Positions 24,993-28,493 of a stretch of DNA of 64,000 nucleotides are shown piece after piece. The DNA lies in NCBI GenBank assembly GCA_963709405.1, contig CAVPXM010000020.1, forward strand, positions 1 through 64,000, given 5' to 3'. Source of the stretch: an uncultured Nitrososphaerales archaeon (GTDB lineage Archaea; Thermoproteota; Nitrososphaeria; Nitrososphaerales; Nitrososphaeraceae). Positions within the stretch are counted from its first letter, which is position 1. Every line of letters begins with the position of its first letter. The position numbers and the translations under genes were made by a program. The notes beneath the pieces are model-generated. The model worked only from the letters and a program-made list of their open reading frames with translations, was not told the DNA's origin and did no database searches.

Positions 24993-25901
24993 ATGAACTC
25001 GTTGAGATTGACTTATAGATCCTTACCATTAATAGTGACAGTAATTGTCTGTTTGATGCTTATTGGTTCACACATTCTAATTAGTTTATCATATGCACAA
25101 AATAGTACTATCGAGAAAAAAGCGCCTACAAACATGATGGCCAAATCTAAATTGCAGGGTATAAAAATCAGATTCCCAGCACAAGGTCAAAGAATCACTG
25201 ATGATAAAAATCTTACAATAACTGGAATGTCTACATACAATAGTCATACTAATTGTCAAGTTTCAATTATTGTAAATAACGTAAGACCATATCAACACGT
25301 TATTGCTACCGGACACAATGGTGCAAATGATTATTCAACATGGAAATTCCCACTTAGCTCTAAATATACTACAGTTAAAGATGGATTGAGCAACAAGGCT
25401 ACAGCTAAATTAACCTGTAATGATAAACCGATGAATATAACAAAATTTCATAGTGTAAATTTCACCAGCGCATCGACTGGTGCATCTATCCCACAAGCGC
25501 AACTACATACTTCAAAGAATAATACGAATAGCACTAATAGTAACAAAAATAATGCCGAGTTGTTATCTATTATTGGAAAACAAAAGTCCAATAAACCAGG
25601 AAATCCTTCTGTGTCATCAATTATTGACAATCATAGTAAAATGATTAGCAATAAACAAAAGACTCTAGATAATTCTATGACAAGTAGGTCTAGGACAATT
25701 AATCATGAAAACAAATCATCTATAAAATCTGAATCTTCGGAGATATCAAAGGACTCAACTATAAATGGGATTAAGGACCCATTTGTTCTAACTTTACCTA
25801 CAATTAATGACAACTTGTCATCCTCGTCCCCATCATCTGAATTACAGTCAGAGAGCCATTCAAAAAACAATAATGAAGGTTCTCATCATCACATAAAGTA
25901 A
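24993..25901 (+). CDS. Secreted protein with Ig-like domain and S/N-rich tail
   Basis: Signal peptide (SYAQ), CQVSIIVNNVRPYQ...DYSTWKF...TAKLTC, and a low-complexity C-terminus. Confidence 0.75.
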   Translation: MNSLRLTYRSLPLIVTVIVCLMLIGSHILISLSYAQNSTIEKKAPTNMMAKSKLQGIKIRFPAQGQRITDDKNLTITGMSTYNSHTNCQVSIIVNNVRPYQHVIATGHNGANDYSTWKFPLSSKYTTVKDGLSNKATAKLTCNDKPMNITKFHSVNFTSASTGASIPQAQLHTSKNNTNSTNSNKNNAELLSIIGKQKSNKPGNPSVSSIIDNHSKMISNKQKTLDNSMTSRSRTINHENKSSIKSESSEISKDSTINGIKDPFVLTLPTINDNLSSSSPSSELQSESHSKNNNEGSHHHIK

Positions 25902-26356
25902 TTAGCATGCCTTGTCATACCTAGAACCAACTGCCACCCTTTTCCCATTATCTTTAACTAGGGTCAACAATTGTATCATCATAATCGTTTGGATTCTGTA
26001 TGTTGATCAATCGAGTAACAGAATCATGTTATTCTATCTTTTGTAATAAAAGTTTGCCCCATTATGAATTGTTCAATCTTTTCAGACGAAGTCAAACACC
26101 AGGCATCTATTTTATCGTTAGATTGCCAGGATTTTTGTCAATAACTTGAATCATTTCGTGGAATTCTTTAACAATTCTATAGGTAAAAGGTGACAACGTT
26201 TTGAGACTTTTTAATACTTTTAAGATATCACCGATTTTCGACCTTCATACGCAGAATCTCCTGTTGACATGCCCAGCCCAGCCTACCATAGACACAACGC
26301 CATTTTGATGCCTATTTAGACTGCACAATACAGAAATTCAAATCAAATTTAAATAA

Positions 26357-26404
26357 AACTACACAATTCCGTTTTCCAATATCTACTCCTATATAGTTCA
26401 GCAA
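26357..26404 (-). pseudogene. N-terminal stub of an IS110-family DEDD recombinase
   Basis: The TTG-initiated MLNYIGVDIGKRNCVV matches the Y-I-G-x-D start of the IS110 RuvC-like domain. Similarity stops after about 16 codons. Confidence 0.6.
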
Positions 26405-26655
26405 CCTTTCTTTTTCATGTTTGGTGTTCTCTTATCTCACCTCCTCCCCTTCTTTTTTCAGTATGGATAGCTGGACTCCCCTTCGTTTTTCAGTATGGAT
26501 AGCTGGACTAAGCTGCCATACATCTATGAGAGCTTATGGCTCACTTTGACAACAGCTTCGAGAATATGCCAGATTCAACATACTAGACCTATGTGGTCAT
26601 GCATGATAAGGGCCAGCTAACCCTATTGATCATAGAAGGCGACTTTCACATGTCT
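26405..26655 (-). ncRNA. Candidate IS110 bridge-RNA-like structured non-coding region
   Basis: A long closing stem encloses two hairpin arms with internal loops, directly upstream of the IS110-like start. Folded by eye. Confidence 0.45.
26446..26509. repeat. 32-bp tandem duplication
   Basis: CCCCTTC(T/G)TTTTTCAGTATGGATAGCTGGACT occurs twice with one mismatch. Confidence 0.95.
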
Positions 26656-26705
26656 TTCAATTGAGCATATTTATCCATAATAGATAGTTCGTAATATGTA
26701 ACACT

Positions 26706-28493
26706 ATGAGTAAGAAAATAAAGACAATACCCAGTAAAAATTCAACTAAAAATGGTGCGTTTCGAATAGAAAAAACGAAAATATCAATTTCATCAAATGG
26801 TACTGTACGCATAGAATCTAAGAAAGTTAGGCCCCAAAGAGCACTGATTCTTCAAGGAGGAGGGGCATTGGGTGCATACGAAGCTGGAGTCTTTAGGTCA
26901 TTAGCAGAAAAACTTGCTAGAGAAGATGGGAAAAATGGAGAAAAAGATAGACCATTATTTGATATCGTTGCTGGTTCGTCAATTGGCGCAGTCAATGCTG
27001 CTTTATTGGTGAGTTATGTAGTCCAAAATAAAAGTTGGATAGGATCTGATAATATGCTTTATCAATTTTGGGATGACTTATCAAATCCTACTTGGTGGGC
27101 TCCGGGATGGGTAAAAGATAATCCAATATTTATTAGATGGAGGCAATTTTGGATAGACTCAGTTCTAGATAATGATCTGAATGGCTATATGTGGAATTAT
27201 TGGAAAGGATTAAGAGAAATATGGAATAAATATTATAACAATAATTACCCAGTAGAAATCGAGAATGATATCAAGTATGAACGACCATTGGGATTTCCTA
27301 TTCCATACCTAAAAGATGATTGGCCTTACTTTGGCTGGAGCGGAAGCGACGAAAACTGGAAAGAGGAAAAGCCATGGATTGGTTCATATTATTGGTGGCC
27401 CGAAAATTTAGGACCAGTTGCATCTGGTGAGACTGCGCGAAGATATTTTTCATATGCGAGATCCGTCATTTTTGGTGCACCCAATGTTCTTTCACCAGTT
27501 ATTATGCAGCCTGACTGGAAGTTCTTTGATCCTGCACACTCATTTACAAGGTTTGACAATAAACCATTGGAGAGAACAATAAAGAAATATTGGGATTACG
27601 ACAAACTCCCACTCAAAACCTATTTCGAAAAAAATCAACCAAGACTTCTACTTGTTAGTGTTGATGTACAGGACTGTAGAACTGCAGTGACATTTGATAG
27701 CTATGAAAAAGAAAATGGTAGATGTAAGACTGAGTACGGAGATGATACCCTAAGACATGTTTTTGAATACGACGGCATTACTATTGACCACGTAGGCGCA
27801 AGCATGTCAACCCACCTAAGATACAAATATCCAAAATTCAGATCACGAGAAGAAAGTGTCGAGAACTATAGTGAAGACGGCCAAGAAGCACGAGGAGAAA
27901 AAGTAGGAGTAATAGTTGAAGAGAAGGATCGTTACTTCTGGGACGGAGCTTACTTGAGTAATACCCCATTAAGGGAGGTTTTGCAAGCACATCGGGATTA
28001 TTGGCATAAAGTAAGAAATGCAGAAGTGCCAGATCTTGAAATTTATATTGTTAACCTATATCCGTCTACAGAGAAATCTCTTTCAGGTGTCATCGCTGAT
28101 CTTGATGTAATACAGGATAGAGAAATTGATATCAAGTTCCATGATAGAACTGACTATGATATCCAGGCAGCAAATACTACTACAGATTACATAGATTTGA
28201 CAAAGGCGATTATAGATCTTGCGCTCAAACATACAAATAACAGTAGCTCATTTCAATCTGACATTATGAGTATCTTAAATTCGCAAAGCAGAAGCAAAGG
28301 CCGTAACAGAATGTACAGAAAATATGGTGAGCTTCTGGCTGGACGCTTCCGCATAATTAAGATAGGTTACATAGAGCGTATTGATGATGGTAATACAATT
28401 TTTGGTAAGGCATTTGAATTTTCTTATCGTACGGTAAATGATCTCAGAGATAGTGGATATAGGGATGCATCAGAAAACATGAGATATGACTAG
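26706..28493 (+). CDS. Patatin-like phospholipase family protein
   Basis: LQGGGALGAYEAG, GSSIG nucleophile elbow and WDGAYLSNTPL. Confidence 0.92.
   Translation: MSKKIKTIPSKNSTKNGAFRIEKTKISISSNGTVRIESKKVRPQRALILQGGGALGAYEAGVFRSLAEKLAREDGKNGEKDRPLFDIVAGSSIGAVNAALLVSYVVQNKSWIGSDNMLYQFWDDLSNPTWWAPGWVKDNPIFIRWRQFWIDSVLDNDLNGYMWNYWKGLREIWNKYYNNNYPVEIENDIKYERPLGFPIPYLKDDWPYFGWSGSDENWKEEKPWIGSYYWWPENLGPVASGETARRYFSYARSVIFGAPNVLSPVIMQPDWKFFDPAHSFTRFDNKPLERTIKKYWDYDKLPLKTYFEKNQPRLLLVSVDVQDCRTAVTFDSYEKENGRCKTEYGDDTLRHVFEYDGITIDHVGASMSTHLRYKYPKFRSREESVENYSEDGQEARGEKVGVIVEEKDRYFWDGAYLSNTPLREVLQAHRDYWHKVRNAEVPDLEIYIVNLYPSTEKSLSGVIADLDVIQDREIDIKFHDRTDYDIQAANTTTDYIDLTKAIIDLALKHTNNSSSFQSDIMSILNSQSRSKGRNRMYRKYGELLAGRFRIIKIGYIERIDDGNTIFGKAFEFSYRTVNDLRDSGYRDASENMRYD

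Follow-up and report, generated by a model that had tools for sequence, protein, structure and literature searches.

We found that positions 26357–26667 (minus strand) of the window, the whole 64,000-nt stretch of DNA analysed here, are, as judged by comparison with homologous copies, the fossil left end of an IS110-family insertion sequence that was cut after codon 16 of its recombinase gene. The window copy retains the left end, the full RNA gene and these 16 codons; the remainder of the element has been lost, the right end with it. The homology is readily observed: the stretch is 77–92% identical to further copies in the same genome, which adjoin genes with DEDD_Tnp_IS110 and Transposase_20 domains, and the family homology stops at 26356/26357. 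Our joint reading, to which we assign a probability of about 0.85, is that of an IS1111-type fossil with a full bridge/seek-RNA gene, whose relatives read their target and which is itself immobile and most likely neutral DNA. The features of the window copy, ordered from the left end, are:

26658–26667 (−): target remnant, that is the outer 8 nt of an IS5-type terminal inverted repeat (TIR; TGCTCAAT here, TGCTYTGT in other copies) and the TG crossover core (26658–26659); from empty versus occupied sites, unoccupied TIRs and left-junction alignments
26652–26657 (−): left 6-nt terminal extension AAAGAC; boundaries from the comparison of empty and occupied sites
26641–26651 (−): left subterminal inverted repeat ATGTGAAAGTC (family consensus ATGTAAAAGTC); from repeat comparison with complete copies
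26493–26651 (−): bridge/seek-RNA module, full-length match to covariance model R1 (125.1 bits, E = 3e-24)
26614–26624 (−): P1 5' strand AGGGUUAGCUG, pairs with 26495–26505
26569–26613 (−): arm 1, target-binding loop, with distal hairpin GACC-ACAUA-GGUC; from helix and guide covariation
26600–26607 (−): right target guide AUCAUGCA, followed by U at 26599, on the 5' loop strand of arm 1
26576–26582 (−): left target guide UAUGUUG (core UG at 26576–26577), followed by a constant AAU, on the 3' loop strand of arm 1
26510–26558 (−): arm 2, donor-binding loop, with base stem AAGCUGU/GCAGCUU and distal hairpin GAGC-CAUAA-GCUC; from helix counts and guide covariation
26548–26551 (−): right donor guide UGUC, on the 5' loop strand of arm 2
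26521–26527 (−): left donor guide AUAGAUG, identical to the right-end terminus ATAGA plus core TG, on the 3' loop strand of arm 2
26495–26505 (−): P1 3' strand CAGCUAUCCAU, with a second copy of it inside the tandem duplication; from helix counts, model match and the duplication
26444–26509 (−): unit of 32 nt, repeated 2.1 times in tandem and made up of the P1 3' strand and A-rich tail, private to the window lineage
26437–26444 (−): GGAGGUGA, a block before the recombinase gene that is kept across the family in alignments and that we call Shine-Dalgarno-like from its letters
26357–26418 (−): N-terminal stub of a DEDD recombinase; from alignment to relatives and Pfam matches of full-length relatives

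The remains of the recombinase gene are short. The stub MLNYIGVDIGKRNCVV is a TTG-started ORF at 26312–26404. The family ATG at 26416–26418 is out of frame via a 1-nt deletion after it (MKKKGC-stop), and the TTG at 26402–26404 opens the frame LNYIGVDIGKRNCVV. The 16 window codons are identical to the family N-terminus, which reads MKKKGLLNYIGVDIGKRNCVVCIMDSNG in copy C18. Domains are recognised by Pfam in the homologous copies: C44 contains DEDD_Tnp_IS110 and Transposase_20, and the N-terminal half of C18 matches PF01548 at 107 bits. The frame of C44 is uninterrupted over 364 codons, but it has no ATG, GTG or TTG at the family start, and this copy has no right end. The recombinase genes of C18 and C54 carry frameshifts, for which an assembly error is possible. 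A relative, L041, aligns to the IS621 transposase (8wt6), although with low similarity (49 bits). Its DIGK, CEST, KTDKLDAR and QSGTS face the IS621 stretches that contain D11, E60, D102/D105 and S241, the catalytic residues as numbered in the text of Hiraizumi et al. 2024 (PMC11208158). The D-E-D-D residues and the serine of the IS110 family are thus present in L041, and the window stub holds the first catalytic Asp alone. Because genes with DEDD_Tnp_IS110 and Transposase_20 domains lie directly downstream of homologous modules, we conclude that the stub does not come from a sugar kinase or another RNase H-fold protein. The preliminary description of this DNA had proposed the left end of an archaeal IS110 whose RNA module outlived the recombinase gene, and the position of the homologous modules agrees with this. 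Its word 'decapitated' is misplaced, since what survives is the head of the gene, its first 16 codons, and what has been lost is the body. It had also overlooked the 1-nt deletion after the family ATG and the tandem duplication at 26444–26509.

Scanning the same genome with the covariance model, which is based on alignment A2 of 52 distinct copies, we found six full modules and one partial module. The six full modules score between 125 and 166 bits, the window copy being the lowest, and three of them (C20, C60 and C80) are without most of the recombinase gene. Furthermore, of 237 other genomes of the same family, 41 contain homologous copies upstream of recombinase genes. The model matched 44 of the 100 loci searched, and all 44 matches are on the gene strand and 5' of the recombinase match; 14 of these loci are outside the seed alignment A2 (L060–L064, L066–L068, L077, L080, L095, L104, L109 and L118). 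The copies that the preliminary description expected upstream of IS110 genes are thus present in the same genome and in others. The range of the family, as estimated with the model, spans several archaeal phyla and includes Nitrososphaerales, Nitrosopumilus, Methanosarcinales/ANME, Bathyarchaeota and Thorarchaeota. When we scanned positions 25500–27500 against Rfam 15 at E-values up to 10, we obtained four chance-level matches to unrelated families and nothing relevant, the best E-value being 1.4 to an unrelated snoRNA model.

In the relatives, the RNA of about 160 nt has an enclosing stem, P1, around two arms (30 base pairs in all), and we observed that these helices covary. In alignment A2, the 30 pairs are 90.4% paired compared to 28–49% with slid partners, and 15 pairs show double changes, a number reached by none of 500 shuffles. 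In alignment A3, which is more divergent and was fitted to the model so that its pair counts are biased toward structure, 22 of the 30 pairs show double changes and 91.3% are paired compared to 30–41% with slid partners. For P1, changes on both sides were found in 7 of 10 pairs (A2) and in 10 of 10 pairs (A3), as expected for the enclosing stem that had been suggested. In both arms, the distal hairpin and the base stem are likewise kept with compensatory changes. In the window copy itself, two P1 pairs are non-canonical and non-canonical pairing is also found in the base stem of arm 1, which reads GCCC/CUGG here and CCCC/GGGG in the family.

The fold of the single sequence is weak. For 256 nt, z is -1.74 with 9 of 200 shuffles equal or better; for the 133-nt core, z is -1.77 with 13 of 200 shuffles as good; and all z-scores that we computed span -1.7 to -2.3. 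The stability above shuffled controls that the preliminary description asked about is thus not beyond chance for the single sequence (z about -1.7), and the fold is considered real from its conservation and covariation in the relatives, not from single-sequence stability. If the z-scores of -1.7 to -1.8 and the lack of a match to an Rfam family were considered by themselves, they would agree with chance or simple-sequence pairing in AT-rich intergenic DNA, in front of a stub from another RNase H-fold protein, e.g. a sugar kinase. This explanation is refuted by the covariation of helices and guides, the 44 of 44 model matches upstream of IS110-type genes, the Pfam domain DEDD_Tnp_IS110 on full-length homologues and the alignment of a relative to the IS621 transposase, and we consider it next to impossible.

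The pairings that had been proposed earlier can be compared to this family structure. The quoted strings (UCAAUAGGGUUAGCUGG with CCAGCUAUCCAUACUGA, CCUUC with GAAGG, GACC-acaua-GGUC and GAGC-cauaa-GCUC) are all present on the minus strand as stated. For the arms, the distal hairpins and base stems are retained, whereas the pairing of AUGC with GCAU is not: it falls in a guide strand, and arm 1 is in fact closed by CCCC/GGGG. For arm 2, the proposed UGU/AUG extension falls within the donor guides, and the partner of the outer CCUUC/GAAGG extension is, by eye, not kept in C60 and C80. A likeness of the letters CUGA and UGAU in arm 2 to boxes D and C was dropped on inspection, as the guide is on the wrong side of CUGA.

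The boundaries of the element were observed by comparing empty and occupied sites. An empty site is found in a MITE of about 140 bp with at least 10 copies and reads TGCTTTGT-TG-CACGAATCC. In the C54 copy, the left junction reads ...TGCTTTGT-TG-AAAGACATGTAAAAG and the right junction ...CTTTTACATAGA-TG-CACGAATCC; C18, compared with unoccupied TGCTCTGTTGCATGATCCATTA repeats, is the second such case. An orthologous empty site for C54 was sought in relatives of the genus and none was found; this search revealed the MITE instead. In an empty site, the crossover core TG is found a single time; in an occupied one, it is found at both junctions. The donor junction of the family (right end-TG-left end) reads ...CTTTTACATAGA-TG-AAAGAC/AATACATGTAAAAG...; this circle junction occurs at 0 sites in the assembly. 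A short shared core, no long target duplication, and repeats that are subterminal instead of terminal are what we find here, as in the IS110 family. The right-end partner of the left subterminal repeat, GACTTTTACAT, is present in complete copies, and the window copy is without it.

The natural target is the TIR TGCYNTGT-TG-CRYRAT of an IS5-type transposon and its MITEs, where the target code comprises 13 nt (5 + TG + 6). The TIR-bearing element of about 1 kb encodes DDE_Tnp_1_5 and DDE_Tnp_1. We thus conclude that the element parasitises another transposon. Three other boundary models were considered. A core GC with the left end at YNTGTTGAA, taken from the TGC at both junctions, is incompatible with the empty sites, which place TGCYNTGT in the target repeat. 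A crossover near AGAC with a unique target of 17 nt was judged statistically impossible, and the corrected form with core TG was accepted, the target being a repeated TIR. Lastly, the dinucleotide YN as core, sought 7–8 nt into the right flank, was inconsistent (9/17 by eye) and was dropped.

The loops of both arms contain guides that we observed to covary with the DNA at these boundaries, as is expected of a bridge RNA; a comparison of the loops with donor and target flanks had been proposed in the preliminary description. The right target guide fits its own right flank at 5.0 of 6 positions and the flanks of other copies at 3.0 of 6 (0 of 10000 permutations, n=16). For the left target guide, the fit is 6.6 of 9 positions with its own left flank and 5.2 of 9 with those of others (0 of 10000 permutations, n=42), where both tests treat the copies as unrelated. 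In L062, one of the Methanosarcinales-type copies, the reverse complement of the right target guide, TGTTTAGC, fits the right junction at 8 of 8 positions. On the donor side, the left guide covaries between AUAGAUG/ATAGATG and, in Methanosarcinales-type copies, AUGGAUG/ATGGATG. For the right donor guide, the observed DNA/RNA pairs are GACA/UGUC, TACA/UGUA, GATA/UAUC, TGGACA/UGUCCA and TAGACA/UGUCUA; this pairing is short (4–6 nt) and stops before the core. In the window copy, the GAC of AAAGAC and the next A complement the right donor guide UGUC. All four guides change along with the DNA in the Methanosarcinales-type copies, so that the same code is found in divergent archaeal members. The two internal loops thus pair with the halves of target and donor and overlap at the core, with a short match for the right donor guide.

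By likeness to IS621 and ISEc11, the RNA would be transcribed and bound by the recombinase, which would act as the catalyst. In such a complex, arm 1 would read the target and arm 2 would read the joined ends of the element: UGUC would sit on GACA beside the left subterminal repeat, and AUAGAUG would match the right terminus together with TG, after which strand exchange by the recombinase would take place at TG. Promoter-like AT-rich boxes could also be present in the subterminal repeats of the family.

The window copy itself shows several signs of decay. At 79 columns that are conserved in at least 90% of copies it has 6 deviations, and 38 of 52 copies have two or fewer. Four of the deviations are common to the window copy and the orthologous relic in genome G020; two and four more, respectively, arose separately in each lineage. 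We conclude that the relic was present in the common ancestor of the window species and genome G020 and thus predates their split. The 32-nt duplication is missing from every other copy and from the G020 ortholog, and the latter has lost a P2b pair and the core-reading G of the guide. In arm 2 of the window copy there is a G>C change just before the guide and a 1-nt insertion after it. The left target guide fits its own flank at 4 of 9 positions, which is the lowest value (tied with L039) save that of the G020 ortholog at 1 of 9. The own guide pair of the window copy has 0 exact target sites in the genome, compared to 12 for the C18-type pair. C18 and C60 have the same right target guide, AUCAUGCA, and 23 sites in the genome match the right guide and the constant part of the left guide. 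Lastly, the module is 92.7% identical to the G020 ortholog and the third codon positions of the neighbouring gene are 89.9% identical, a comparison of low power (9 differences in 124 nt versus 30 in 298).

Transcripts were sought in four runs of RNA libraries. One soil RNA library contains a contig across the break point (26044–26392) with 19 differences. From this contig, the locus or its ortholog may be transcribed, although DNA carry-over is possible and the contigs show neither strand nor ends. In the contigs of the four runs, most pieces that cover the module have loose ends, by which they are recognised as other copies.

An orphan module could in principle be transcribed and loaded by the recombinase of another copy, e.g. 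C44, and so recombine the inverted repeats of the IS5-type element in trans. The full-length model match, a right target guide identical to that of other copies, retention of the relic at one locus in two species and RNA-library contigs that cover the region would fit such a role. So would the open 364-codon frame of C44, the three of six full modules without most of the gene, and the orphan small-RNA copies described for ISPpu9/Ssr9 in the cited part of PMC12288879. However, the module that would have to act is the lowest-scoring one, with non-canonical pairs in P1 and the arm 1 base stem. It carries six changes at conserved columns, with independent further ones in each lineage, and its own guide pair has no exact target where the C18-type pair has 12. 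Conservation of the module is no higher than at third codon positions, the G020 ortholog is without a P2b pair and the core-reading G, C44 has neither a start codon at the family start nor a right end, and most RNA contigs over the module derive from other copies. The guiding of a recombinase in trans, which the preliminary description had entertained, is thus not supported and the evidence leans against it; we consider it unlikely. The wider idea that recombinase-less modules are a kept stock of trans guides, loaded by any surviving recombinase and reshaping the archaeal chromosome via IS5-type repeats, seems quite unlikely to us.

The position of the module next to a patatin-like phospholipase gene (26706–28493, plus strand) could point to another role, that of a co-opted cis-acting leader or regulator of this gene. 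Here, the left end is 38 nt from the patatin-like start codon in divergent orientation, and the arrangement is kept in G020, where the 38-nt spacer is 97% identical. But the module is encoded on the other strand and falls outside the direction of the patatin-like transcript, the same module occurs at unrelated loci, and there is no excess conservation, so that a regulatory role appears very improbable. We thus return to the relic reading, which follows from the lowest model score, the deviations at conserved columns, the guide mismatch, the private duplication, the missing right end and recombinase body, and the conservation that shows no excess. We infer a loss of function: the window copy is immobile and has most likely become non-functional DNA under neutral drift.

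In itself, the window copy is of small importance and can be annotated as a dead transposon end. The family gives an explicit structure and guide code for an archaeal bridge/seek RNA, and the covariance model would enable the annotation of these RNAs. In the literature text searched, an explicit account of an archaeal bridge RNA was not found; supplementary tables may list predictions. If recombinase-less modules did act as trans guides, the archaeal fold, which is found in at least five archaeal lineages, would constitute a working RNA-guided system, and a comparison with C/D-box RNPs could test the proposed descent of Nop5 from IS110 recombinases.

From its ends and guides, the family is of the IS1111 type and not of the IS110/IS621 type, as indicated by subterminal repeats of 11–12 bp, extensions of 6 and 3 nt, and the order of the guides. 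IS1111-type elements (ISEc11, ISKpn4 and ISPa11) are described in the cited part of PMC11187229 with a DEDD recombinase, subterminal inverted repeats of 11–13 bp and asymmetric extensions (left 6–7 nt, right 3 nt). In their seekRNA, the complement of the target top strand precedes the match to the bottom strand, and the two matches overlap at the insertion point (PMC11187229). In the family studied here, ATGTAAAAGTC(T) pairs with (A)GACTTTTACAT over 11–12 perfect base pairs. Outside the core TG, the left extension is AAAGAC (6 nt; AATAC, 5 nt, in subfamily B) and the right extension is AGA (3 nt). In arm 1, the 5' strand carries the right target guide, and the left one follows on the 3' strand. 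The recombinase type, the subterminal repeats, the asymmetric extensions, the segment order and the overlap at the insertion point are thus all shared with the IS1111 seekRNA elements as described there. The RNA gene of IS1111 elements is nearly always downstream of the transposase, with few exceptions, e.g. ISMtsp17 (Siddiquee et al. 2024, as far as cited here; PMC11187229), whereas our module is upstream in 44 of 44 matches and the 3' non-coding part is about 90 nt. The archaeal hosts and the enclosing stem around both arms are further differences, and the placement with IS1111 is based on ends and guides, not on protein phylogeny. That a family has the ends and guide order of the IS1111 type together with the gene layout of the IS110 type bears on the divergence of both groups.

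The bridge RNA of IS621 is encoded in the left end and has two modules of stem, internal loop and hairpin, according to the cited parts of Durrant et al. 2024 (PMC11208160) and Hiraizumi et al. 2024 (PMC11208158). As in that description, the RNA of our family is upstream in the left end, has a target and a donor module, each with a left and a right guide, and reads the core dinucleotide with three guides, the right donor guide excepted. The right target guide is followed by one additional nucleotide that can pair with the last base of the donor, similar to the IS621 handshake guide, and the protein aligns with its D/E/D/D and SG columns kept. In contrast to IS621, both loops carry their guides in the opposite order (the right guide on the 5' strand and the left one on the 3' strand), the crossover core is TG instead of CT, the subterminal repeats are long instead of 2–3 bp, and an enclosing stem replaces the free arrangement of a 5' stem-loop. 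Furthermore, the left target guide has 7 nt compared to 9 nt, and the right target guide 8 nt compared to 4–7 nt.

A third comparison is ISPpu9/Ssr9 of Pseudomonas putida, an IS110-family element in repeats with extra RNA gene copies without transposase (PMC12288879, in the part cited). Our family similarly has RNA gene copies without a transposase elsewhere in the genome and inserts into repeated sequences. ISPpu9, unlike our family, is bacterial, has its RNA downstream of the gene and targets REP sequences. Site-specific insertion sequences that have subterminal inverted repeats and are aimed at the TIR of another transposon are a known lifestyle. The family shares this lifestyle, with an archaeal IS5-type element and its MITEs providing the TIR that is targeted, and is a clear case of a transposon that hunts the inverted repeats of another in ammonia-oxidising archaea.

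The observation at window 26357-26667 (minus strand) is real. All the strings quoted in the preliminary description are found on the minus strand, and its main inference, the left end of an archaeal IS110 element with an RNA module, is correct, as homologous copies precede IS110-type recombinase genes. The window holds a truncated element of the IS1111 type, within the IS110 family. Its bridge/seek-RNA module is complete but decaying, and this copy is most probably inert. It is the family that is of interest: it has an archaeal bridge-RNA fold with an enclosing stem backed by covariation, offers a readable 13-nt target code and lives by hunting IS5-type inverted repeats.

The stretch of ~310 nt recurs within the genome of the window (G000; 4.83 Mb in 100 contigs, 91% complete, 37% G+C) in copies that are 77-92% identical. 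In the copies on contigs C18, C54 and C44, it is followed by an IS110-type recombinase gene (DEDD_Tnp_IS110 and Transposase_20). The C18 protein begins with MKKKGLLNYIGVDIGKRNCVVCIMDSNG; the 16-residue stub of the window thus represents the first 16 codons of that gene. We found that the stub opens a 30-codon TTG-initiated ORF (26312-26404). Two changes had been missed before: a 1-nt deletion that puts the family ATG (26416-26418) out of frame, and a 32-nt tandem duplication (26444-26509). Homology to the element ends at 26356/26357, and the DNA past this break is unrelated to the element and mostly unique. At 26334-26358, exactly where the homology ends, the 11-nt unit AAATTCAAATA is repeated 2.3 times in tandem; this repeat may be connected with the deletion of the gene body.

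The remaining copies in G000 are also defective. The recombinase frames of the C18 and C54 copies are broken, and the C60, C80 and C6 copies are truncated. In the C44 copy the frame is open, but the family start position lacks a canonical start codon and the right end is absent. Contig C54 also carries an apparently intact 352-codon IS110-family gene (C54:44210-45268; L046:711-1769, minus; MFVGMDVHKNYLQV...), which is another IS110 lineage in the same genome. Public RNA-library contigs cover the module; judged by their loose ends, most stem from other copies. One spans the break point, and transcription of the relic is neither shown nor excluded by these contigs.

Of 237 other genomes in this taxonomic family, 41 contain element DNA; with the window's own genus included, such DNA is present in 10 of 18 genera. 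Close copies in named records carry the titles Nitrososphaerales or Nitrososphaeraceae. One relative, L041, has an uninterrupted frame of 364 codons from stop to stop. It aligns to the IS621 transposase structure 8wt6 with the Asp/Glu/Asp/Asp and Ser-Gly stretches in register. Such frames were seen only in L041 (1193-2287, +) and the C44 copy (L006:~1690-2784), both without ATG, GTG or TTG at the conserved N-terminus; AGG replaces ATG in five of ten subfamily-A copies. A full element copy (protein 89% identical to Nitrososphaerales copies, RNA-model match 142 bits) was also found on L056, a 1795-nt contig from a record titled Gemmatimonadales bacterium MAG; the contig is probably archaeal DNA that was placed in a bacterial bin. 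In another genome, G212, two inverted copies lie 1.25 kb apart (C10:287448-288699, +, L042; 289955-291206, -, L019). They have identical guides and differing right flanks, and could be the substrate or product of an RNA-guided inversion.

Folding the window sequence alone gave z = -1.74 for the 256-nt stretch (9/200 shuffles fold equally well) and z = -1.77 for the 133-nt core, which is no proof of a real structure, and no Rfam family matches the window module. The evidence for the structure comes from its relatives. An nhmmer profile yielded 55 distinct copies of the left end in loci fetched from genomes and metagenomes, 52 of which were aligned (A2). RNAalifold on this alignment recovered the enclosing stem (P1), the distal hairpin of each arm and the base stem of arm 2; for arm 1, the base stem CCCC/GGGG was added by hand. 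Over the 30 pairs, 90.4% are paired, compared to 28-49% when partners are slid by 1-3 columns. Changes on both sides occur in 15 pairs, and none of 500 shuffles reaches the observed values. The covariance model R1 built for the module has 44 matches among 100 loci, a lower bound as upstream DNA is missing from some loci, and all 44 share the strand of the recombinase gene and lie on its 5' side. At 14 loci the match lies outside the seed A2 (L060-L064, L066-L068, L077, L080, L095, L104, L109 and L118); these are titled Methanosarcinales, Methanophagales, a Methanobacteriota archaeon, Thorarchaeota, Nitrosopumilus or Nitrosopumilaceae, a Nitrososphaera, and further Nitrososphaerales. The Bathyarchaeota locus L065 is matched but belongs to the seed, and among the 100 loci none of the Planctomycetes type is matched. 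In a second alignment that includes divergent matches (A3, 34 sequences), 22 of 30 pairs have double changes and 91.3% are paired compared to 30-41%, with a lean towards the structure because A3 was fitted to R1. The enclosing stem suspected in the preliminary description is thus part of the archaeal fold and supported by covariation.

To the left of AAAGAC-ATGTAAAAGTC, every copy has TGC-YN-TGTTG, and complete copies end in GACTTTTACAT-AGA-TGC.... A first reading, with TGC at both junctions, gave GC as the core; it was overturned by comparing empty and occupied sites. Searching with the C54 copy and its flanks, we observed that its right flank consists of a ~140-bp repeat present in at least ten copies, a MITE with the inverted termini TGCTTTGTTGCA...TGCAACAAAGCA. 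Empty sites read TGCTTTGT-TG-CACGAATCC. The occupied site reads TGCTTTGT-TG-AAAGACATG... at the left junction and ...ACATAGA-TG-CACGAATCC at the right. The crossover core is thus TG, the element spans AAAGAC to AGA, and TGCYNTGT belongs to the target DNA and not to the element. In a second case, the C18 flanks rejoin as TGCTCTGT-TG-CATGATCCATTA, a sequence present unoccupied in G000. The motif TGCYNTGTTG occurs 143 times in G000 and also terminates nine ~1-kb elements. The one examined has two overlapping frames (DDE_Tnp_1_5 and DDE_Tnp_1), hence an IS5-type transposase, and in genome G194 the element adjoins such a gene. We conclude that the family uses the inverted repeats of another transposon, and of that transposon's MITEs, as insertion sites.

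Target elements in G000
G000:C7:14574-15572 (L173), and eight more ~1-kb copies: IS5-type element, DDE_Tnp_1_5 + DDE_Tnp_1
G000:C50:18512-18655: MITE example, ~140 bp

The IS5-type element and the MITE have the termini TGCYNTGTTGCA in common. Sub-terminal variants of the motif in G000 are TGCATAATTC (14), TGCGCGATTC (9), TGCATGATTC (9), TGCACAAAAT (9) and TGCACGAATC (9). Solo left-end fragments of 30-45 nt (half of the terminal repeat, TG and AAAGACATGTAAAAGTCGCC) lie at G000:C21:214028-214077 (L009), followed by sequence resembling the interior of the IS5-type repeat, and at G000:C44:8069-8100 (L010). They may be footprints of imprecise element loss.

The loops of the RNA can be read against these junctions. 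In arm 1, the target-binding loop, the 5' strand is hypervariable inside the constant frame CCCCUU-NNNNNNCA-U-GACC. Its reverse complement is TG plus the six bases right of the element (right target guide). It fits the right junction, for example, at 8/8 positions in C18 (TGCATGAT) and L139, and at 7/8 in L044 and L041, where the first position is off (A-T mismatch and G-T wobble, respectively). Over the six bases past the core, guides match their own flank at 5.0/6 and the flanks of other copies at 3.0/6 (n=16 copies with a right junction; L149 was excluded beforehand for its imperfect right-end motif and non-matching flank). The 3' strand (…NNUGU-UG-AAU; left target guide) has the same sequence as the core TG with the five bases to its left, and matches its own left flank at 6.6/9 and others at 5.2/9 (42 non-redundant copies). 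Five copies with duplicated flanks were removed before counting, as were C80 and L012, which lack the left end, and L129, L132 and L146, whose left flanks are too short. In permutation tests uncorrected for relatedness among copies, 0/10000 were as high for either guide (n=16 and n=42).

In arm 2, the donor-binding loop, the left donor guide is the 3' strand AUAGAUG, which reproduces the right terminus ATAGA followed by TG. The 5' strand (right donor guide) opens with UGUC, the complement of GACA adjoining the left subterminal repeat; this short pairing covers 4-6 nt and ends before the core. Donor guides and element ends co-vary across subfamilies.

Donor guide variants (RNA/DNA)
Right donor guide: UGUA/TACA, UAUC/GATA, UGUCCA/TGGACA, UGUCUA/TAGACA
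Left donor guide, Methanosarcinales-type copies: AUGGAUG/ATGGATG

The target guides of the Methanosarcinales-type copies agree with their DNA as well. In L062, the reverse complement of the right target guide, TGTTTAGC, equals the right junction (8/8), and the left target guide GUAUUUG matches the left flank.

The window module scores lowest of the six full-length modules in G000 (125 bits versus 142-166 with R1). It has two non-canonical pairs in P1 and two in the arm 1 base stem, and shows 6 deviations across the 79 columns with ≥90% conservation; 38 of 52 copies show two or fewer. Its left target guide matches its own left flank at 4/9 positions. In G000, no exact site exists for its guide pair, compared to 12 unoccupied sites for the C18-type pair. 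The orthologous locus of genome G020 has the same insertion adjoining the same patatin-like gene; the relic thus predates that species split. Both relics share four deviations at conserved columns, and the window and G020 copies gained two and four more independently. Their RNA cores are 92.7% identical (115/124), and third codon positions of the neighbouring gene 89.9% (268/298). Only the window lineage carries the 32-nt duplication. The neighbouring gene (26706-28493, +) has 595 codons and a patatin-like phospholipase domain; it runs divergently from the relic, with 38 nt between the relic and the gene start, and G020 keeps this arrangement. The ORF at 24993-25901 (+; 302 codons, Ser/Asn-rich) has a hydrophobic stretch at its N-terminus and paralogues on C36 and C82 (93% and 86% DNA identity).

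No archaeal bridge RNA is explicitly described in the available text of PMC11208160, PMC11208158, PMC11187229, the Vaysset et al. preprint or a 2026 preprint on intergenic clustering, whose supplementary predictions may include such RNAs. In IS621, each loop has its left guide on the 5' strand, pairing with the bottom strand, and its right guide on the 3' strand, pairing with the top strand; CT serves as the core, and subterminal repeats measure 2-3 bp (PMC11208160, PMC11208158). The archaeal family keeps these strand polarities, whereas the guide order inside each loop is reversed. Such a reversed order is described for IS1111-type seekRNAs, along with subterminal repeats of 11-13 bp and extensions of 7 or 6 bp left and 3 bp right (Siddiquee et al., PMC11187229). 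The archaeal family resembles this type in its guide order, its repeats ATGTAAAAGTC(T) and its extensions (AAAGAC or AATAC, and AGA). The sole feature that differs is the upstream position of the RNA gene, which is a rare exception in the IS1111 type (PMC11187229). According to reference entries, our only source here, IS4321 and IS5075 likewise target the inverted repeats of another transposon.
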